Shown: positions 16,990 through 59,687 of the stretch, one piece after another | How positions within the stretch are numbered: position 1 is the stretch's first letter | Layout of the letters: every line of letters begins with the position of its first letter | DNA from: Escherichia coli | GTDB lineage: Bacteria > Pseudomonadota > Gammaproteobacteria > Enterobacterales > Enterobacteriaceae | Assembly: GCF_003991155.1 (NCBI RefSeq) | Contig: NZ_CP031293.1 | Length of the DNA stretch: 64,000 nt | Reading direction: 5' to 3' (one strand) | Made by a program: the position numbers and the translations under genes | The notes under the pieces: model-generated | The model's input: the letters and a program-made list of their open reading frames with translations, nothing else | What the model was told of the DNA's origin: nothing | The model's database searches: none

Positions 16990-17165
16990 GCCCTCATCAG
17001 GAGCAGAGAATTGCCGGATGCGGCGTAAACGCCTTATCCAGCCTACGTTCGGCAACGGTTGTAGGCATGATAAGACGCGCAAGCGTCGCATCAGGCATCG
17101 TGCACCGATTGCCGGATGCGGCGTAAATGCCTTATCCGGCCTACAGTCAGCAACGTTTGTAGGTT
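16990..17165. repeat. BIME/REP cluster between aceA and aceK
   Basis: Two copies of gccggatgcggcgtaaacgccttatccggcctac-type palindromic units. Confidence 0.75.
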
Positions 17166-21457: not shown

Positions 21458-21901
21458 ATGGTTATTAGTATTCGCCGCTCACGGCATGAGGAAGGGGAGG
21501 AACTCGTTGCGATTTGGTGTCGTTCTGTCGATGCCACTCACGATTTTTTATCAGCAGAGTATCGGGCCGAGCTGGAGGAGCTAGTTCGTTCCTTCTTGCC
21601 GGAAGCGCCGTTGTGGGTCGCGGTTAATGAGCGGGATCGGCTGGTTGGGTTTATGTTGTTAAGTGGGCAGCATATGGATGCGCTTTTTGTCGATCCTGAT
21701 GCGCGCGGTTGTGGCGTGGGCCGGATGCTGGTGGAACATGCGCTCTCGATGGCACCGGAACTGACAACCAATGTTAATGAGCAAAATAAGCAGGCTGTTG
21801 GGTTCTATAAGAAGATGGGTTTTAAGGTTACGGGACGCTCTGAGGTGGACGATTTGGGGAAACCGTATCCATTGCTGAATCTGGCATATGTGGGGGAATA
21901 A
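21458..21901 (+). CDS. yjaB: GNAT-family N-acetyltransferase
   Basis: 147 aa; GNAT acetyl-CoA motif region (ARGCGVGRMLVEHA); position between metA and rrnE. Confidence 0.8.
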   Translation: MVISIRRSRHEEGEELVAIWCRSVDATHDFLSAEYRAELEELVRSFLPEAPLWVAVNERDRLVGFMLLSGQHMDALFVDPDARGCGVGRMLVEHALSMAPELTTNVNEQNKQAVGFYKKMGFKVTGRSEVDDLGKPYPLLNLAYVGE

Positions 21902-21979
21902 GCTGCCCCCTATCGTGCTATCGTGCCTGCGTAAGCTGGAGCAGACGCGCCAGCGTCGCAGCCGGCCGTTTTCTGCACC

Positions 21980-22012
21980 AGCGCAAAAAGGCCATCCTGA
22001 CGGATGGCCTTC
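21980..22012 (-). terminator. rrn operon terminator (T1-like)
   Basis: Minus-strand hairpin AGGCCATCCGTCAGGATGGCCT followed by TTTTTGCG just downstream of the 5S gene. Confidence 0.7.
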
Positions 22013-22023
22013 TGCTAAATTTG

Positions 22024-22143
22024 ATGCCTGGCAGTTCCCTACTCTCGCATGGGGAGACCCCACACTACCATCGGCGCTACGGCGTTTCACTTCTGAGTTC
22101 GGCATGGGGTCAGGTGGGACCACCGCGCTAAGGCCGCCAGGCA
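22024..22143 (-). rRNA. rrfE: 5S ribosomal RNA
   Basis: Reverse complement matches the E. coli 5S sequence (UGCCUGGCGGCC...GGGAACUGCCAGGCAU) with one difference near position 13 (U instead of G). Confidence 0.95.
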
Positions 22144-22235
22144 AATTCTGTTTATCAGACCGCTTCTGCGTTCTGATTTAATCTGTATCAGGCTGAAAAT
22201 CTTCTCTCAATCCGCCAAAACACCTTCGGCGTTGT

Positions 22236-25142
<2,907 letters not shown>

Positions 25143-25325
25143 CACAACCCGAAGATGTTTCACTTCAGAGTTGCGAAAATTTGAGAGACTCACGAACAAC
25201 TTTCGTTGTTCAGTGTTTCAATTTTCAGCTTGATCCAGATTTTTAAAGAGCAAATATCTCAAACATCACCCGAAGATGAGTTTTGAGATATTAAGGCAGG
25301 TGACTTTCACTCACAAACCAGCAAG

Positions 25326-25401
25326 TGGCGTCCCCTAGGGGATTCGAACCCCTGTTACCGCCGTGAAAGGGCGGTGTCCTGGGCCTCTAGACGAAGGGGA
25401 C
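25326..25401 (-). tRNA. gltV: tRNA-Glu (UUC) in rRNA spacer
   Basis: Reverse complement is GTCCCCTTCGTCTAGAGGCCCAGGACACCGCCCTTTCACGGCGGTAACAGGGGTTCGAATCCCCTAGGGGACGCCA. Confidence 0.95.
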
Positions 25402-25486: not shown

Positions 25487-27028
<1,542 letters not shown>

Positions 27029-38859: not shown

Positions 38860-39050
38860 CGTTTGTGGGGCTAATTTCTTGTCGGAGTGCCTTAACTGGC
38901 TGAGACCGTTTATTCGGGATCCGCGGAACCTGATCAGGCTAATACCTGCGAAGGGAACAAGAGTTAATCTGCTATCGCATCGCCTTTGCGGCGATCGTCT
39001 CTTGCTTCATCCGTCGTCTGACAAGCCACGTCCTTAACTTTTTGGAATGA
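38860..39050 (+). promoter_or_regulatory. TPP riboswitch (THI element) in thiC leader
   Basis: Conserved THI-box elements CTGAGA and AACCTGATCAGGCTAATACCTGCGAAGGGAAC about 100-180 nt upstream of thiC ATG. Confidence 0.85.
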
Positions 39051-40949: not shown

Positions 40950-41584
40950 TGTATCAGCCTGAGTTTCCTCCTGTACCCTTTCGTTTAGGACTGTACCCGG
41001 TGGTTGACAGCGTACAGTGGATCGAACGTCTGTTGGATGCAGGCGTACGTACTCTCCAGCTACGCATCAAAGATCGGCGCGATGAAGAGGTAGAAGCCGA
41101 TGTGGTGGCGGCAATTGCGCTGGGCCGCCGATATAACGCACGGCTGTTTATCAACGATTACTGGCGGCTGGCGATTAAGCATCAGGCATATGGCGTCCAT
41201 CTGGGACAGGAAGATTTGCAAGCCACCGATCTCGACGCTATCCGTACAGCGGGCCTGCGGCTGGGCGTTTCGACTCATGATGATATGGAAATCGACGTCG
41301 CGCTGGCGGCACGTCCTTCTTATATCGCGCTGGGACATGTGTTTCCGACACAAACCAAACAGATGCCTTCCGCACCGCAGGGGCTGGAACAGCTGGCACG
41401 GCATGTTGAGCGCCTGGTGGATTATCCCACCGTGGCGATTGGCGGTATCAGTCTGCCGCGCGCGCCTGCGGTGATAGCAACGGGTGTCGGCAGTATCGCC
41501 GTCGTCAGCGCCATTACTCAAGCCGCAGACTGGCGTTTGGCAACGGCACAGTTGCTGGAAATTGCAGGAGCTGGCGATGAATGA
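40949..41584 (+). CDS. thiE: Thiamine-phosphate synthase
   Basis: ORF 40946-41584; ATG 40949 ([20 protein letters not shown]), overlaps thiC stop. Confidence 0.9.
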
Positions 41585-42332
41585 CCGTGACTTTATGCGT
41601 TATAGCCGCCAAATCCTGCTCGACGATATCGCTCTGGACGGGCAGCAAAAACTGCTCGACAGCCAGGTGCTGATTATTGGTCTTGGCGGGCTGGGTACAC
41701 CTGCTGCGCTATACCTGGCGGGGGCTGGCGTCGGGACGCTGGTACTGGCAGATGACGACGATGTGCATTTAAGCAATCTGCAACGACAAATCCTCTTTAC
41801 CACTGAAGATATCGATCGCCCGAAATCACAGGTCAGCCAACAGCGACTGACACAGTTGAATCCCGACATTCAACTGATGGCATTACAACAACGATTAACG
41901 GGTGAGACGTTAAAAGATGCGGTTGCACAAGCCGATGTGGTGCTCGACTGTACTGACAATATGGCGACTCGCCAGGAGATTAATGCCACCTGCGTGGCAC
42001 TCAACACGCCGCTTATCACCGCCAGCGCGGTCGGATTTGGCGGTCAGTTGATGGTACTGACGCCGCCCTGGGAGCAGGGGTGTTACCGCTGCCTGTGGCC
42101 AGATAACCAGGAGCCAGAACGCAACTGCCGCACGGCGGGCGTGGTTGGCCCGGTGGTCGGGGTTATGGGCACTTTACAGGCACTGGAAGCGATTAAGTTA
42201 TTAAGCGGTATAGAGACGCCTGCGGGAGAACTCCGACTGTTCGACGGTAAATCGAGCCAGTGGCGCAGCCTGGCTTTGCGCCGCGCCAGCGGTTGCCCGG
42301 TATGTGGAGGATGCAATGCAGATCCTGTTTAA
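41577..42332 (+). CDS. thiF: ThiS adenylyltransferase (E1-like)
   Basis: ORF 41484-42332; start ATG 41577 ([15 protein letters not shown]) overlapping thiE stop; 251 aa. Confidence 0.9.
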
Positions 42333-42516
42333 CGATCAACCGATGCAGTGTGTCGCCGGACTAACTGTTCACGAACTGCTGGAGCAACTCGATCAACAAC
42401 AAGCAGGTGCGGCACTGGCGATTAATCAGCAAATCGTCCCGCGGGAACAATGGGCGCAACATATCGTGCAGGATGGCGACCAGATCCTGCTTTTTCAGGT
42501 TATTGCAGGGGGTTGA
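42316..42516 (+). CDS. thiS: Sulfur carrier protein ThiS
   Basis: 66 aa; MQILFNDQ...QVIAGG with C-terminal Gly-Gly. Confidence 0.9.
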
Positions 42517-42517
42517 G

Positions 42518-43288
42518 ATGTTACGTATTGCGGACAAAACGTTTGATTCACATCTGTTTACCGGCACAGGGAAATTCGCCTCTTCACAACTGATGATGGA
42601 GGCGATCCGCGCTTCCGGCAGCCAGCTGGTGACACTGGCGATGAAACGCGTCAACTTGCGCCAGCACAACGACGCTATCCTCGAACCGCTTATCGCGGCG
42701 GGTGTGACCCTGCTGCCAAATACATCCGGGGCGAAAACAGCGGAAGAAGCCATTTTCGCTGCCCATCTGGCTCGTGAAGCGTTAGGCACAAACTGGCTAA
42801 AATTAGAGATTCACCCTGACGCCCGCTGGCTGTTGCCCGATCCCATCGAAACCCTGAAAGCTGCCGAAACGCTGGTACAACAGGGATTTGTCGTGCTGCC
42901 TTACTGCGGGGCCGATCCGGTATTGTGTAAACGTATGGAAGAAGTCGGCTGTGCAGCGGTGATGCCGCTCGGCGCGCCGATTGGCTCGAATCAGGGACTG
43001 GAAACCCGTGCCATGCTGGAGATTATTATCCAGCAAGCCACGGTTCCGGTGGTTGTCGATGCTGGCATCGGCGTTCCCAGCCATGCCGCGCAGGCGCTGG
43101 AAATGGGGGCCGACGCGGTGTTAGTGAATACGGCGATTGCCGTCGCGGACGATCCCGTCAACATGGCGAAGGCATTTCGTCTGGCAGTAGAAGCAGGCCT
43201 GCTGGCACGTCAGTCCGGACCGGGCAGCCGCAGTCATTTTGCTCATGCCACCAGCCCGCTGACCGGATTTCTGGAGGCATCTGCATGA
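42518..43288 (+). CDS. thiG: Thiazole synthase
   Basis: ORF 42407-43288; start ATG 42518 ([20 protein letters not shown]); 256 aa. Confidence 0.9.
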
Positions 43289-44418
43289 AAACCTTCAGCG
43301 ATCGCTGGCGACAACTGGACTGGGACGACATCCGCCTGCGTATCAACGGCAAAACGGCTGCTGACGTAGAGCGGGCGCTAAATGCCTCGCAACTCACCCG
43401 CGACGACATGATGGCATTGCTATCACCCGCCGCCAGTGGCTATCTGGAACCACTGGCCCAGCGAGCGCAGCGTCTGACCCGTCAGCGATTTGGCAACACA
43501 GTTAGTTTCTACGTCCCGCTTTATCTTTCCAATCTTTGCGCTAACGACTGCACGTACTGCGGATTTTCCATGAGCAATCGCATCAAGCGCAAAACACTGG
43601 ATGAAGCGGATATTGCCAGGGAAAGCGCCGCTATACGGGAGATGGGCTTTGAACATCTGCTTTTAGTCACTGGTGAACATCAGGCGAAAGTGGGGATGGA
43701 TTACTTTCGTCGTCATCTCCCTGCCCTGCGTGAACAGTTCTCTTCACTACAGATGGAAGTGCAACCGCTGGCGGAGGCGGAATATGCCGAGCTAAAACAG
43801 CTGGGTCTCGATGGCGTGATGGTTTATCAGGAGACATATCACGAGGCGACTTATGCCCGCCATCATCTGAAAGGCAAAAAACAGGACTTCTTCTGGCGGC
43901 TGGAAACGCCGGATCGGCTGGGCCGTGCGGGGATTGATAAGATAGGCCTCGGCGCGCTAATTGGCCTTTCCGACAGCTGGCGCGTTGACTGCTATATGGT
44001 TGCAGAACATTTGCTATGGCTGCAACAGCATTACTGGCAAAGCCGCTACTCTGTCTCCTTCCCACGCCTGCGTCCATGTACTGGCGGCATTGAGCCTGCG
44101 TCGATTATGGATGAACGCCAGTTAGTGCAAACCATCTGCGCCTTCCGGCTGCTTGCACCGGAGATTGAACTGTCACTCTCCACGCGGGAATCACCGTGGT
44201 TTCGCGATCGCGTGATTCCGCTGGCAATTAATAACGTCAGCGCTTTTTCGAAAACGCAGCCAGGTGGCTATGCCGACAATCACCCCGAGCTGGAACAGTT
44301 CTCACCACACGACGATCGCAGGCCGGAAGCGGTTGCTGCCGCGTTAACCGCTCAGGGTTTGCAGCCGGTATGGAAAGACTGGGACAGCTATCTGGGACGC
44401 GCCTCGCAAAGGCCATGA
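43285..44418 (+). CDS. thiH: 2-iminoacetate synthase (radical SAM tyrosine lyase)
   Basis: 377 aa; radical-SAM CNDCTYC motif; start overlaps thiG stop (ATGA). Confidence 0.9.
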
Positions 44419-44530
44419 GACAGAATGTAAGAACGTAAATTTATTCCGAGCCGCTACGGAAGATGAAAAACGCAAGGTTGTTGAAAGCGTTGTGTTTTTT
44501 TATGGTAGTGCCGTCAGCAGGAATGTTGTC

Positions 44531-44571
44531 CAGGGCGAAAAGCTTCTTCCTCGTTTCGCCCTGCCTTTCTT
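44531..44571 (+). terminator. Candidate terminator of thi operon
   Basis: Hairpin CAGGGCGAAA...TTTCGCCCTG followed by CCTTTCTT. Confidence 0.45.
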
Positions 44572-44735
44572 AAAATAACGTCTCAGTACGCTATTTCATG
44601 ATTGCCCGCAAAAATATTCATTAATATTTCTATTGTTTTAACAAAGAAGGCACAAGGCTTTAATTGCAAAGCAAGATCGCCGTCAAAACAAGAGTGTGCA
44701 ATAACCGGTTATAATAATTCCACCCTCACCAAAAT

Positions 44736-45386
44736 ATGGTCCAGAACATCATGTCAGCTTACCTAAAAAAAGCGTTATCGATTCATAGTGATGAATTTCG
44801 CCCATACGGAAACGTAATTTCTGCAATAAATGTAGATTCATTGCTTAAATACCTTAAAGAGGAAATTTCTGTACCTGAGGATCAGGTGGCATATGTCAGA
44901 AGCGATGAGCGCTTAAAGCAATACCCCGCCGTGAGCGACATTCAGCGCCAAATCTACGGTGGAATGCCCGTTCAGGCTGGGTACGTTTGTGGGGTAAATA
45001 CCACCCAGGATGGCTTTGAATATCACCAGGGAAGTGAAGTCATTATCGCCGCCAGCGATTTTTTCCTGTTTTTAGGTAAACGAGAGTTGATGCAGGGTGA
45101 CACGTTTAATGGTGAACGTGCAGAGCCGTTTTTCATTCCGGCAAAATCGGTGATTGAACTTTATAGCACAACGCTACATTACTGCCCTATGAGTATCAAT
45201 GCACAACCTTTTAGTGCAGCGATTATTCTTCTTGATGGAACTAATGAAGATATTGATGGCAAGAATAAACCAACAATATTAAGCAAGCGAAATACCTGGT
45301 TTATCGCCCATGAAAGTTTCACTGAGCATCCTTGCCCATTATTAAAAGGGCCGCATCTTTGCGTGAATGATATTATTCATGGGTGA
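44736..45386 (+). CDS. Cupin-fold protein of unknown function (accessory)
   Basis: 216 aa; cupin-like motifs (G..EYHQGSEV..., ...TTLHYCP...); AT-rich; alternative start ATG 44751 (MSAYLKK); no strong SD. Confidence 0.45.
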   Translation: MVQNIMSAYLKKALSIHSDEFRPYGNVISAINVDSLLKYLKEEISVPEDQVAYVRSDERLKQYPAVSDIQRQIYGGMPVQAGYVCGVNTTQDGFEYHQGSEVIIAASDFFLFLGKRELMQGDTFNGERAEPFFIPAKSVIELYSTTLHYCPMSINAQPFSAAIILLDGTNEDIDGKNKPTILSKRNTWFIAHESFTEHPCPLLKGPHLCVNDIIHG

Positions 45387-45390
45387 AAAT

Positions 45391-45410
45391 GGCGAAGATT
45401 TCTCTTCGCC
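45391..45410. terminator. Bidirectional hairpin terminator between convergent genes
   Basis: GGCGAAGA-tttc-TCTTCGCC perfect stem with T-rich flanks on both strands, between stops at 45386 and 45417. Confidence 0.5.
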
Positions 45411-45416
45411 TGTTCT

Positions 45417-48071
45417 TTACCCGGCAATTACCGCCACGCTGTCTTTTGTTCGCACGCGTGGTGGCATGGTCAGACCGCAGCGATCCCACTCATTCCCCTG
45501 CCATGCACTCGCAAAATAATAATGATTCGCTGCCGATGGGTAGACCACGACCGCCAGTTCATTACGCTTTTTTAGTAAAGACTGTGGCAAGGTGAAACGA
45601 TATTCCGGCCAGCCCTTTTCGGCAATTAACGTATCGTTAAGCCAGATAGCAACGCTTCCCTGCACTTGCGGTAAATAAAGCTCAATATCGTCGGTAATCG
45701 TCTCCAGCGCAAAGCGTAACTGATAATGTCCCGGACCACACCACGTCTCCATCCCCTGCTGCTCCCACCCTTTTGTTACCTCAACGGGTCGGGAAACGTT
45801 ATCAACCAGCAGTTGCCAGTGCTTATCCAGCACCACCTCGTGGCGACTTTCCACTACCTGCAATGAAAAGCAACGGGCCTGCCAGGGCTCGATTTGTAGC
45901 GGATAACTTCCCGTGAGATGCTCTTCCAGCACTGAAACCTCTCCCGTTGCAAGATGCCACTCCGACAACTGCCCACTGAGGCCCGGAAAATGTAGCCAGC
46001 CGTAGAGCGGGGTATCTCCGTCGTTAAATACGCTGACGTAACGCGATGTTTCATCCTGGGTAATTCGCGTCCAGACGGCAGTTTTCCGGGAGGGATAGTC
46101 AACAAAGGGGTGATCGTTTTTCAGCGTGTCGGCTAACGTGCTGCACTGCGGTTGCGCCTCAATCAGTTTTTGCAGCCTTTCGGTGAGAGAACGATCTTCA
46201 CCTTTTTCCTCGCTATATGCCGCAAGCTCGCCGGCGATCAGAAGCTGGCCACCAGCGGCGACAAAGTGCTCCAGTTGGCTCAGCGTGGCGGCTGATTTCA
46301 CCACCTTAACGTCCGCTAACAGAAGCGCAGGGAAATTCATGCCGTTAATGCGCGTTCCATCAGCCTGGAGCAAATTCTCTTCATCAATAAAGAAATATTC
46401 AAATCCCTGAGCGCTGAGTTGTTTTGCCCAATATTCGCCTGACTGCCCTTCGTTGCCATCCACGCCACAGTGCCAGAAAGTCCGTTTGGGATAGAGTACG
46501 CCAACATCAACGTACGGCTCTCCCTGCTCAAGAAATTCGGCAAGGCGACCAGATTCCTGAGCAAACCCAGCGTGGAAGGCGTACCAGGGCTGGAAGTTAA
46601 CGCCCGGCGCAAAATCAAAACGCGGGTTACTTAATACGTCGTCATTTGCCTCGCCATCCGTCAGCCAGAACGCGTGCATCAAAAATTGCCGCGCACCGAG
46701 GAGGTGATGGCGCAATGCCTGCAACCGGATGTCATGCAGTGAAATTTCCCACTGCCCGGCAGCAAAATGTGTGCATGGCTTCACCCGCGCATAATATTGC
46801 TCAACAATGCACCCTTTACGCCCATGAGCGCGCGCCACAGAGTCGCCAACCTTCGCCGCCATCTGCGGCTCGCTATTTCGCGAATCGACAGCCGTAATAT
46901 CCCGCCAGCCATCGAGAGCAAAGTAATCCATAGCAAAATTACACCGGTTATCTTCGGTGATGATTTTACTGGCGAAATTCCAGCTACTAACGTGACCTAA
47001 TACTTCATGACCACTTAGCTGTATTCCCCGCTGGTGCGCCCATTCTGACAACGTACCAAAAAAGGCCTGCATCGCCTGGCTGGAATAACAGGAAAGCAGC
47101 TCACAGCGCCGACGTGCGGTACGACTGCCAATGTCCATAACTAACGACATCAGGTTTTCTGCCAGGCAGTAAGGTGCCTGTTGCAATGCATCAACAAACC
47201 TTTTTTCATACATTAAGGAGGATTTGACCGCGCCAGTATGTTCATTCCATTGCCAGAAACAGGCGTGTGGCTGGTCGAAAAAGAGATACGCCACCGTCTT
47301 ACCAAAATGATCGCCAAAAGCGCGGGCGTAAGGTTCATAGCCGACACGAATAAAATTTTCTGCCGCTTCGGGCATCAGGTAATTAATCATCCGTGAGGTC
47401 AAGCAACGCGCCGCGGCAAAGAGCGTCACTACCGTTTCCGCACCCCAGGGCAGGTCGCTTCCCGTAAAGGTGACCTCAAATTCCTCTGTGGTTGCTTTGG
47501 TGATGCGGGCCAATGAAGAAACATCAACAATTTCATCTGCATTGCACTCCCCTGATGAAGAGGTGGCATACGCTGCGACAATTTCCCATTCATCCCACGC
47601 CGGTTTACCGCCAGCAAAAATCCACTCCATTCCACACTGCTGTAGCGCCTGCGCATCCGCAGAGCGGATCCCGGAAAGGTGACATGTCAGTACATCTGCA
47701 GACCGGCTGGACTGGCTCCAGAAAAGATGGCGCTCACGCAGCTCATCTCTCCCTTCAACGGTCCTTCCCCCGGCGTGCCCGGAAAGCCAGTTGTAATCAT
47801 CGTAGATGCCCATCATCAGCCCAATATTGGCAGCTTTATCAGCCGTGTAGCGACAGGCTGCCAGCCACTCCTCACTGAGATAACTCTCCAGCGGAAGACT
47901 CAGACGTGCGGCTATCTGAAATGAACCATACCCTCCCGCCTGCAGTTGCCTCAGTTGGCTGTCGATCTGCTTTTTGTCCGGAATGGTATGCCAGAACCAG
48001 TAGGTTGCAGGCAGGTGCCATACATCAGGATTTTTAAAGTTTTGGCGTGCCTGTGCTAACGAATCATTCAT
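45417..48071 (-). CDS. Large cytoplasmic hydrolase-like enzyme, probable glycoside hydrolase with C-terminal beta-sandwich; family unassigned (accessory)
   Basis: ORF 45417-48104; preferred start ATG 48071 (MNDSLAQARQNF) preceded by AAGGGGGA and overlapping upstream permease stop; 884 aa; no signal peptide; aromatic-rich N-terminal region. Confidence 0.55.
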   Translation of the reverse strand: MNDSLAQARQNFKNPDVWHLPATYWFWHTIPDKKQIDSQLRQLQAGGYGSFQIAARLSLPLESYLSEEWLAACRYTADKAANIGLMMGIYDDYNWLSGHAGGRTVEGRDELRERHLFWSQSSRSADVLTCHLSGIRSADAQALQQCGMEWIFAGGKPAWDEWEIVAAYATSSSGECNADEIVDVSSLARITKATTEEFEVTFTGSDLPWGAETVVTLFAAARCLTSRMINYLMPEAAENFIRVGYEPYARAFGDHFGKTVAYLFFDQPHACFWQWNEHTGAVKSSLMYEKRFVDALQQAPYCLAENLMSLVMDIGSRTARRRCELLSCYSSQAMQAFFGTLSEWAHQRGIQLSGHEVLGHVSSWNFASKIITEDNRCNFAMDYFALDGWRDITAVDSRNSEPQMAAKVGDSVARAHGRKGCIVEQYYARVKPCTHFAAGQWEISLHDIRLQALRHHLLGARQFLMHAFWLTDGEANDDVLSNPRFDFAPGVNFQPWYAFHAGFAQESGRLAEFLEQGEPYVDVGVLYPKRTFWHCGVDGNEGQSGEYWAKQLSAQGFEYFFIDEENLLQADGTRINGMNFPALLLADVKVVKSAATLSQLEHFVAAGGQLLIAGELAAYSEEKGEDRSLTERLQKLIEAQPQCSTLADTLKNDHPFVDYPSRKTAVWTRITQDETSRYVSVFNDGDTPLYGWLHFPGLSGQLSEWHLATGEVSVLEEHLTGSYPLQIEPWQARCFSLQVVESRHEVVLDKHWQLLVDNVSRPVEVTKGWEQQGMETWCGPGHYQLRFALETITDDIELYLPQVQGSVAIWLNDTLIAEKGWPEYRFTLPQSLLKKRNELAVVVYPSAANHYYFASAWQGNEWDRCGLTMPPRVRTKDSVAVIAG

Positions 48072-49563
48072 GGCTTTCCCCCTTCTTAATCGGCGGAACA
48101 TCACAATGACAAATGTATGTCAAAATGGCATACAGCGCCGCGCCCACCAGCATCGCCACCACTACGCCAATATTTGCTGTCGCAAACACGCTGGTTTTGG
48201 TTTCTGCCGTCAGTAAGAAGCCGACCAGGTGAGCAATCCACGGATCGCCTGAGGTGATGGTTCCCATGCCGATAACCGATGCAACAAACAGCGATAATAA
48301 TGCCGTCCAGCGACCGTTACGCCCGCCAAGCCCCGCGGGCTGCGCCATATCAGTGTTCCAGTGCAAGCGTTTTTGCCGGGCAAAGTCGACAAGCTGGATT
48401 GCGCCCATCGATCCCAATACGACGGATACCGTTGCCAGAAAAGACTGAAAGGTTGCGAGGAACGAGTCAGAAACAAACAATAAGTAGAAGGCACCGAATG
48501 CGATAATGACCGCATTGATAGCAGTGGTGGTTGAACGACTGGCTGGAACGCCCATTGCCAGCAATGCGAGGCCTGAGCTGTAAACACCTGTAATGGCTGC
48601 CGCCAGCAGGGAGATGATGATCACGATTGAAAACGGCACATAGAACCAAAACGGCAGGAACGAGGTTAAGGCCGCAATCGGTTCGGACGCTGCTGCTCCG
48701 CTCAGTTCCGGGTTACTGTCGGCCAGCAGGGCACCTAAAATCAGCAGGATGGAAACCGGAAGCGAAATCCCAAGCGACGTCCAGAAAATCACTTTCCCGG
48801 CAGCGGTTTTGCGCGGCAGGTAACGGGCGAAATCACCGCCATAGTTGAGAAAGCCCAGCCCAACCATCGTCATTGCCATCACCATGCCGCCGATAAACGT
48901 TAAAAATCCGGCATCGGGAGCAGCACCCGCCTGCGACCAGTGAATATGTGGCAGGATCAGGATAATAAAGATGATGCTCATTCCGCCCGTTAACCATGCA
49001 ATATACTTTTCTACCTTCATGATGAGCTGGTGGCCGTAGATGGCAACGGACATAGTCAATACTAAGGTCACCACGAACCAGCCCAACAGGCACCCTAAGG
49101 TAGGGTGACCGTTTTCTGCTGCAAATACGGTTGGCCATAACCGGGCAAAGAGGGCGGCGCCAGTGGTCGAGGACAACGTAATAATGGTGATTTTCCAGCC
49201 CATATTGGAAATATAGGCAAATAAAGTGGGGATCTTATTCCCATGATAACCAAAGGCAAATCGGGTCTGCGTTAAGGTAGGCAGCCCGGTGCGTGGCCCA
49301 CCAACGGCCAGAACCCCCACCAGCGTGCTGGATAAAAAATAGCCCACGACACCGGCAACAATCGCCTGCCAGAGGCTTAACCCCAGTGAGTAAACATAAA
49401 TCCCATAGGTAATACCGAGGATGGATACATTCCATGAAAACCAGATCGGGAAAAGTCCGGCAGGCGAACCATAACGTTCGTTATCACTAACCGGGTTTAC
49501 CCCATTGGTTTCCACCTTCATCGTACCTGAAACATCAGATGGGTTCTGGGCTTGGCTCGTCAT
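48064..49563 (-). CDS. NCS1-type (nucleobase/nucleoside/vitamin cation symporter-like) permease (accessory)
   Basis: ORF 48064-49755; preferred start ATG 49563 (MTSQAQNPSD) preceded by GAGAGGA; 499 aa, about 12 TM; N-terminal P..ER...F..WFS.N motif resembling NCS1 family. Confidence 0.55.
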   Translation of the reverse strand: MTSQAQNPSDVSGTMKVETNGVNPVSDNERYGSPAGLFPIWFSWNVSILGITYGIYVYSLGLSLWQAIVAGVVGYFLSSTLVGVLAVGGPRTGLPTLTQTRFAFGYHGNKIPTLFAYISNMGWKITIITLSSTTGAALFARLWPTVFAAENGHPTLGCLLGWFVVTLVLTMSVAIYGHQLIMKVEKYIAWLTGGMSIIFIILILPHIHWSQAGAAPDAGFLTFIGGMVMAMTMVGLGFLNYGGDFARYLPRKTAAGKVIFWTSLGISLPVSILLILGALLADSNPELSGAAASEPIAALTSFLPFWFYVPFSIVIIISLLAAAITGVYSSGLALLAMGVPASRSTTTAINAVIIAFGAFYLLFVSDSFLATFQSFLATVSVVLGSMGAIQLVDFARQKRLHWNTDMAQPAGLGGRNGRWTALLSLFVASVIGMGTITSGDPWIAHLVGFLLTAETKTSVFATANIGVVVAMLVGAALYAILTYICHCDVPPIKKGESHE

Positions 49564-49564
49564 T

Positions 49565-50782
49565 TTATTTCCTCTCATATTGAGCAAGACGTGATAGTAC
49601 GGCTTCATACTCAGGCATGTTCGATGCGCCTTCCCGCTCGACCGCCAGAGAAGCAAACGCAGAGGCAAATTTTGCTGCACTGAGCAACGGCTGGCCCTGC
49701 GCAATCGCCGCAGCAAACGCACCGTTAAACGCATCCCCCGCACCGGTGGTGTCAATACTTACTGCTTTTAACGCTGGAATATGGGTAAATTGTTCACCGT
49801 CATAAATCAGCGCCCCTTGAGAACCCATCGTAATAATGATGTTTTTTGCCCCCAGGGATTTTATGGTTTGCGCCGCTTCTTTCGCACTCTCGATATCATT
49901 AATCTCGACACCGGACATCAGCGACGCTTCTGTTTCATTCGGTGTCAGATAATCAACATATTGCAGGCATTCTTTTGCCTGGTCAGAATAAGGGGCTGGG
50001 TTAAGGATAGTTTTCACGCCCGACCGATGTGCCATATTTAGTGCCAGCGTGGTTGCTTCAAAGTTATTTTCCAACTGTGTCAAAAATATTTTGGCGTCCG
50101 TCAACTCACCCGCAATACTGGCAACTTCCGCTTCAGTGATATATTGATTGGCGCCAGAATAAATCGCGATCTTGTTTTCACCAGCAGGCTCCGAAACATA
50201 TATTATGGCGCTTCCTGTTTTATGCTCTTCGTCCTGGTAGAGGGTAAAGCTGCGGATATCGGATGAAGAGAGATGATCATGCGCCATCTGGCCGAAATGG
50301 TCGTTGCCAACTTTGCCGACGAAGTGTACCTGGACGGGACATTTGCTGGCTGCCATCGCCTGGTTTGCGCCCTTGCCGCCAGGTCCAATGATGGTATTGC
50401 TGGCAAGAATTGATTCGCCGCTTTTAGGGAAGCGATCAACTTTGGCAATAATATCGACATTAAAAGATCCTAATATACAAACTTTGCTTATCATTATTTT
50501 CCCTTTTTTGTTTGTCATCGAGTTTTTTCGCCAGTTGACCTGATTGAGGAACTTTTCAATAGAGGTACCAACGTTATTAACGGGCTGAGAATGGAAAATC
50601 CGACGCAATATTATTGCTCCGCCGTGACAACGCTCAACACCCCCTTGCTCCGCTAATAAATTTAAATCATTACGGATCGTTTCTTTACTGACAGAGAATA
50701 AGATGGCGAGTTGATTAACCGTAGCCCGCTCATGTTTATTCAAATATGCCAATATTTGACGTTGTCTTTCTTTCCCAAACAT
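49565..50782 (-). CDS. Fusion protein: N-terminal DeoR-type HTH domain + PfkB-family ribokinase-like sugar kinase (accessory)
   Basis: 405 aa; N-terminal RQILAYLNKHERATVNQLAILFSVSKETIRNDL (DeoR HTH); kinase motifs GPGGKGANQA, NPAP, TPNETEA and DTTGAGDAFNGA collinear with RbsK; SD GAGGTGA before ATG 50782. Confidence 0.7.
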   Translation of the reverse strand: MFGKERQRQILAYLNKHERATVNQLAILFSVSKETIRNDLNLLAEQGGVERCHGGAIILRRIFHSQPVNNVGTSIEKFLNQVNWRKNSMTNKKGKIMISKVCILGSFNVDIIAKVDRFPKSGESILASNTIIGPGGKGANQAMAASKCPVQVHFVGKVGNDHFGQMAHDHLSSSDIRSFTLYQDEEHKTGSAIIYVSEPAGENKIAIYSGANQYITEAEVASIAGELTDAKIFLTQLENNFEATTLALNMAHRSGVKTILNPAPYSDQAKECLQYVDYLTPNETEASLMSGVEINDIESAKEAAQTIKSLGAKNIIITMGSQGALIYDGEQFTHIPALKAVSIDTTGAGDAFNGAFAAAIAQGQPLLSAAKFASAFASLAVEREGASNMPEYEAVLSRLAQYERK

Positions 50783-59368: not shown

Positions 59369-59687
59369 AGGGTTCCTCAGCTCGCTGACAAGTCGACCCA
59401 TCTGTCCATTGAGCGGACAGTTTGTGCAACACTATTTTGTTGACCGGAAAATGGAACACTTTCCGCAATGCCTGTTGCTATCACGCTTAAACCATTTCAT
59501 TGCGATTTACACAGAACGGACGTCCTGTCGCAGTATATTAAGTCGTCGATAGAAACAAGCATTGAAAGGCACAGCAGTAGTCAAACAGTGTGAAACGCTA
59601 CTGGCGCCTTACAGCGCAAAAAGGCTGGTGACTAAAAAGTCACCAGCCATCAGCCTGATTTCTCAGGCTGCAACCGGAAGGGTTGGC

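Follow-up and report, generated by a model that had tools for sequence, protein, structure and literature searches.

The 5S rRNA gene at positions 22024-22143 of the window (i.e., the entire 64,000-nucleotide stretch of Escherichia coli DNA under analysis) encodes U at RNA position 13, where all 5S copies of K-12 encode G. We hold it very probable that this is a functional rrnE 5S gene with a common allele, and that the G/U difference is an effectively neutral polymorphism spread by gene conversion, descent, and recombination. Nucleotide 13 is an unpaired and exposed base of the loop A three-way junction, and in this explanation its identity would be unconstrained. The G/U difference would be an effectively neutral standing polymorphism: within a genome, gene conversion (concerted evolution) would have carried U13 from one to another of the seven rrn operons, and descent and recombination would have carried it between strains. 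The U13 allele is known biology and represents no new feature.

The rrnE operon and its 5S gene

A direct read of the minus strand across 22024-22143 gave UGCCUGGCGGCCUUAGCGCGGUGG... / UGCCUGGCGGCCUUAGCGCGG..., and these coordinates correspond to the exact extent of the mature 120-nt 5S rRNA. RNA position n is found at window coordinate 22144-n; position 13 therefore falls at 22131, with T on the minus strand and A on the plus strand. The features of the operon and its immediate surroundings are as follows, with the basis for each in parentheses.

21458-21901, plus strand: yjaB, convergent with rrnE (annotation of NZ_CP029747.1 mapped onto the window; K-12 synteny)
21985-22011, minus strand: intrinsic terminator hairpin, AAGGCCAUCC-GUCA-GGAUGGCCUU plus a U run, directly 3' of the 5S gene (folding)
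22024-22143, minus strand: rrfE, mature 5S rRNA gene of 120 nt, C12 U13 allele (Rfam RF00001; identity to annotated rrf genes; alignment with the eight K-12 copies)
22131, minus strand: 5S rRNA position 13, U here and G in all K-12 copies (sequence read; loop A, unpaired segment 12-15)
22144-22235, minus strand: 23S-5S spacer (sequence comparison with K-12)
22236-25141, minus strand: rrlE, 23S rRNA (Rfam RF02541, 2863 bits; annotated in a near-identical strain)
25326-25401, minus strand: gltV, tRNA-Glu(UUC), in the 16S-23S spacer (ARAGORN and Rfam tRNA)
25487-27028, minus strand: rrsE, 16S rRNA (Rfam RF00177, 1576 bits)

Several independent properties identify the gene as a 5S rRNA gene. Its score with the Rfam covariance model RF00001 is 93.2 bits over 22026-22141 (gathering score, 38), and the match is complete, encompassing model positions 1-120. 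Every helix is present in the consensus alignment, including helix I and the two arms (helices II-III and IV-V) that meet it at the three-way junction of loop A. Moreover, the gene lies at the 3' end of an rRNA operon, with 16S, tRNA-Glu, 23S, and 5S collinear on the minus strand and followed by the terminator hairpin. The operon has the order rrsE-gltV-rrlE-rrfE with tRNA-Glu as its only spacer tRNA, with purD-purH upstream and yjaB-metA-aceBAK downstream. Since yjaB on one side and purH on the other constitute the K-12 rrnE context, we assign the operon as rrnE and the 5S gene as rrfE.

Immediately past the 5S gene, the 46 nt at 21978-22023 (hairpin included) fold with an energy of -23.8 kcal/mol (z = -4.7), and none of 200 shuffled sequences was as stable. 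A consensus terminator scan downstream of the 5S gene yielded no site, although direct folding gives a strong hairpin and U run; the scan probably missed it because an A/U extension of the stem uses up part of the U run, and its negative outcome is therefore ascribed to the tool. On the other side of the gene, the 23S-5S spacer has an A run just 5' of the 5S gene (22144-22183) that is one A shorter than that of K-12, i.e., GAUAAACAG versus GAUAAAACAG in K-12 (GATAAACAGAATT versus GATAAAACAGAATT). This short A-run spacer form is also found in rrnB of strain 2016C-3878.

Elsewhere in the window, Rfam matches above the gathering score were also detected for (i) naRNA4, a REP-derived nucleoid-associated RNA, at 17064-17141, (ii) StyR-44 at 25149-25248, in the 16S-23S spacer between tRNA-Glu and the 23S gene, (iii) a TPP riboswitch at 38873-38973, upstream of thiC, and (iv) P26 at 59622-59683, between tuf and secE according to strain annotation mapped onto the window. 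In addition, the rpoC-thiH interval at about 44,750-50,780 (mapped from strain annotation 41413-47444) contains genes for a ribokinase-like protein, a member of the purine-cytosine permease family, a large hypothetical protein, and a DUF4867 protein. We take these genes to be absent from the K-12 gene order, and they may constitute a small variable island.

Distribution of U13 among copies, operons, and genomes

The earlier note had described a U in place of G near position 13, and alignment of the window copy with all eight rrf genes of K-12 MG1655 bears this out: U13 is the sole difference from the C12 G13 copies rrfC, rrfD, rrfG, and rrfH. G13 occurs in all eight MG1655 copies and U13 in none, which accounts for the sequence that the earlier note expected. 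Position 12 is itself polymorphic in K-12, with C12 in rrfC, rrfD, rrfG, and rrfH, and A12 in rrfE, rrfB, rrfA, and rrfF. Across the alignment, the eight K-12 copies vary at positions 3, 12, 92, and 117, a count matching the four variable positions published for K-12 5S genes (PMC6312700). With respect to rrfF, the second 5S gene of rrnD, the combination of C3U, G117A, and A12 is found in K-12 and 2016C-3878 alike; C3U/G117A is a compensatory change, in which the helix I pair 3-117 is kept and converted from C-G to U-A.

Strain 2016C-3878 (NZ_CP029747.1) differs from the window at only 4 of 64,000 bases (18390, 22820, 26218, and 43805), and all seven of its rrn operons were located along the record annotation. 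The earlier note had proposed aligning the gene with the other rrf copies of its genome; in this near-identical strain, six of eight copies (rrfE, rrfB, rrfC, rrfD, rrfG, and rrfH) proved identical to the window copy. The two others are rrfA, which is C12 G13, and rrfF, which is U3 A12 G13 A117, i.e., the same divergent copy as K-12 rrfF. Within this one genome, the spacer between 23S and a U13 5S gene is of at least three different types, with the operons lacking the short-form spacer carrying at least three further and largely unrelated spacer sequences. Two of the four differences between the window and 2016C-3878 lie within rRNA genes (22820 in 23S and 26218 in 16S), and possibly reflect recent conversion from another operon.

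To count alleles in E. coli as a whole, we used 5,426 complete genomes and 40-mers of 5S positions 1-40. Megablast needs an exact 28-nt word, and every 28-mer within such a 40-mer spans position 13, so that each query matches only copies with the same base. The U13 40-mer had 18,890 hits, distributed over 4,173 genomes, the G13 40-mer (for which C12 and A12 copies both count) had 24,197 hits in 5,369 genomes, and the full 5S gene had 43,429 hits in 5,425 genomes. U13 is thus present in about 43.5% of 5S copies and is carried by 77% of genomes; in the genomes that carry it, the median U13 copy number is 5 (range 1-10). In 60 evenly sampled U13 carrier records, 1 to 8 U13 copies were present, with 6-8 copies in 33 of the 60; K-12 derivatives have 8-9 G13 copies each. 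Many independent complete assemblies moreover contain the whole 120-nt allele of the window at 100% identity, as annotated rrf genes. Both in its appreciable frequency and in its presence as several copies per genome, U13 is a common allele, in line with the earlier note. At positions 12-13, E. coli has three common alleles, namely C-U (as in the window), C-G, and A-G.

The surroundings of rrfE differ between strains. The window interval between yjaB and rrfE (21902-22023) is about 120 bp in length, lacks yjaA, and has a terminator hairpin of its own as well as a REP-like element, versus about 520 bp with yjaA and a different terminator for the rrfE-yjaB interval of K-12. Presence or absence of yjaA is a marker in Clermont phylotyping. 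To relate allele to flank, a four-piece query (both alleles and both flank types) was run against 60 sampled records, of which 35 could be classified; in the other 25, neither flank piece matched. Among the 35 classified records, the yjaA-type (K-12-type) flank accompanied U13 in 12 and G13 in 16, the window-type flank accompanied U13 in 3, and a variant flank with a longer (425-nt) span accompanied G13 in 4. U13 is therefore common at rrnE in this sample (60 records, as distinct from a census), on yjaA-containing and yjaA-lacking flanks alike.

A chimeric query, in which 5S positions 1-40 were joined to the terminator-proximal flank, returned 2,046 U13 and 1,530 G13 genomes; these counts were rejected as rrnE frequencies because the flank has a paralog 3' of rrnG, with a 33-mer in common, such that rrnE and rrnG are mixed. 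This paralogy extends over the window rrfE 3' flank at 21850-22023. The terminator hairpin of the rrnG flank is identical to that of the window in 2016C-3878 and slightly diverged in K-12, and in both strains the rrnG flank also contains a REP-like element along with a segment of about 50 nt that matches the yjaB 3' end. The shared flank suggests that rrnE and rrnG took part in an old duplication or exchange reaching beyond the 5S gene, and the arrangement without yjaA may be the ancestral one.

Experiments have measured gene conversion between the rrn operons of E. coli (PMC8022953), and the location of U13 behind differing spacers and beside differing flanks is the mosaic that would be expected from such a process. 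Gene conversion would thus account for the spread of the allele between operons.

Position 13 in the 5S structure and across Enterobacterales

Positions 12-15 constitute the multiloop segment (loop A) that leads from helix I to helix II in the Rfam consensus structure. Scoring with the Rfam 5S covariance model, which had also been suggested in the earlier note, revealed no penalty for U13, with 93.2 bits for the window allele, 92.8 bits for the K-12 C12 G13 allele, and 90.4 bits for the A12 G13 allele (rrfB). On the comparative secondary structure, all three alleles have the same energy (-42.6 kcal/mol), and their ensemble energies are spread over 0.5 kcal/mol or less; the energy argument uses the comparative structure only, since minimum-free-energy folding of single sequences does not yield the native fold for any of the three. 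In living MG1655 cells, G13 and G41 were the two 5S guanines most strongly modified by glyoxal (PMC5733565). Such reactivity in vivo indicates that nucleotide 13 has its Watson-Crick face free within the ribosome.

Variation between species was surveyed via a pattern scan with one genome per species, in which positions 4-11 and 14-47 were fixed and positions 12-13 left open. The resulting sample is arbitrary, with at least 129 matches in at least 120 loci from roughly 45 Enterobacterales species. Eight kinds of dinucleotide were present at positions 12-13 among the matches listed, namely UG (37), AC (29), UU (27), AA (14), GA (13), CG (6), AG (2), and GG (1); the C-U dinucleotide was not seen among the matches listed for this non-Escherichia sample. 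In the 109 full-length copies among the matches listed, position 13 displayed all four bases and an entropy of 1.90 bits, followed by position 12 with 1.61 bits and the next-highest position with 0.88 bits, a comparison that applies to positions 1-3, 12-13, and 48-120, the pattern having fixed the rest. Several species were also heterogeneous at positions 12-13 within a single genome (among the matches listed). Positions 12-13 are thus the hypervariable spot of 5S rRNA among the positions left open by the pattern.

Loop position, glyoxal reactivity, and entropy together describe a nucleotide that is unpaired, without base-specific constraint, and free to vary between species. It is from this variability and structure that we infer the neutrality of the G/U difference.

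The scan also uncovered at least six 5S-pattern matches within about 4 kb of a Kosakonia cowanii contig (NZ_JAROAU010000005.1, 225,128-229,043), which are due either to an unusual clustering of 5S copies or to an artefact of assembly.

Alternative explanations and relation to known 5S genes

A single-base departure from the textbook K-12 sequence could in principle arise from a sequencing or assembly error, or be a private and recent mutation of one isolate. However, many independent complete genomes contain a perfect copy of the 120-nt allele, U13 itself was counted 18,890 times across 4,173 genomes, and six of eight 5S copies carry it in a strain only 4 of 64,000 bases removed from the window, leaving this explanation with practically no probability. 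The single-base difference is likewise all that would speak for a decaying or non-functional 5S gene, a reading to which we attach next to no credence: the gene matches the full-length model with a score above those of the K-12 copies, its remaining 119 positions are those of K-12 rrfC, rrfD, rrfG, and rrfH, and the rrnE operon around it is intact, the 16S and 23S matches being full-length and the terminator strong. Population counts and model scores thus exclude sequencing error, private mutation, and gene decay alike.

A functional difference between U13 and G13 5S rRNA, giving rise to heterogeneous or specialised ribosomes with the polymorphism maintained by selection, is another proposal. 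Both alleles are at intermediate frequency and many genomes possess both; in addition, phenotypic effects have been reported for endogenous 16S variation in rrnH (PMC6312700), and loop A is a site of polyamine cross-linking (PMC1976436). In analogy to what is reported of rrsH 16S variation, it is conceivable, if very improbable, that G13 and U13 (and C12 and A12) are non-equivalent, exerting subtle effects on junction geometry, polyamine binding, or 5S assembly, such that the mix of alleles would tune the ribosomes of a strain. Against a functional difference, the site is unpaired and chemically accessible in vivo, and is the most variable position across related species (among the matches listed), where all four bases are found. 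Furthermore, the number of U13 copies per genome ranges from 0 to 10 with no fixed ratio, and K-12 grows normally without U13 while other strains have 7 or 8 U13 copies. We thus consider selection for functionally distinct 5S alleles to be very unlikely, and favour an effectively neutral polymorphism. Allele frequency, multi-copy presence in a near-identical genome, location in loop A, and covariance score all agree with the view of the earlier note that this is ordinary allelic variation.

In work by Brownlee, Sanger and Barrell (1967-68, strain MRE600) and by Jarry and Rosset (1971-73), G/U heterogeneity at position 13 of E. coli 5S rRNA was reportedly detected by RNA fingerprinting and put to use in mapping 5S cistrons. 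Presumably, this would be the same polymorphism as that represented by U13 in the window; 5S rRNA is not discussed in the MRE600 genome paper. The belief voiced in the earlier note, that heterogeneity at this position was already known, is supported by the population data and the four variable positions of K-12 5S genes (PMC6312700).

Ultimately, the sequence treated as the textbook E. coli 5S rRNA is merely the K-12 allele. With nearly half of sequenced E. coli 5S copies being U13, annotation and quality-control pipelines should not flag this base. Two mildly useful by-products of our analysis are a quantification of loop A hypervariability of 5S rRNA in Enterobacterales, and an illustration of concerted evolution, with one 5S allele occurring behind different spacers and beside different flanks.

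Relative to known 5S genes, the window copy is closest in K-12 to rrfC, rrfD, rrfG, and rrfH (C12 G13), with which it is equal at 119 of 120 positions and has the same length, structure, and position in the operon, the one contrast being G13 there and U13 here. Its positional ortholog is K-12 rrfE (A12 G13), which likewise belongs to rrnE, in the purH-yjaB interval and with tRNA-Glu in the spacer. Compared with this ortholog, the window copy has two adjacent changes (A12 to C and G13 to U), a point that the earlier note did not remark upon; the K-12 rrfE-yjaB interval further differs in containing yjaA and another terminator, both of which the window lacks. Outside K-12, U13 is present in 7 copies in records of O157:H7 as well as in those of Nissle 1917. 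For Nissle 1917, the U13 match covers 5S positions 1-40 only, whereas O157:H7 strain PV15-279 contains the complete 120-nt allele of the window at 100% identity, with no difference in 5S sequence.
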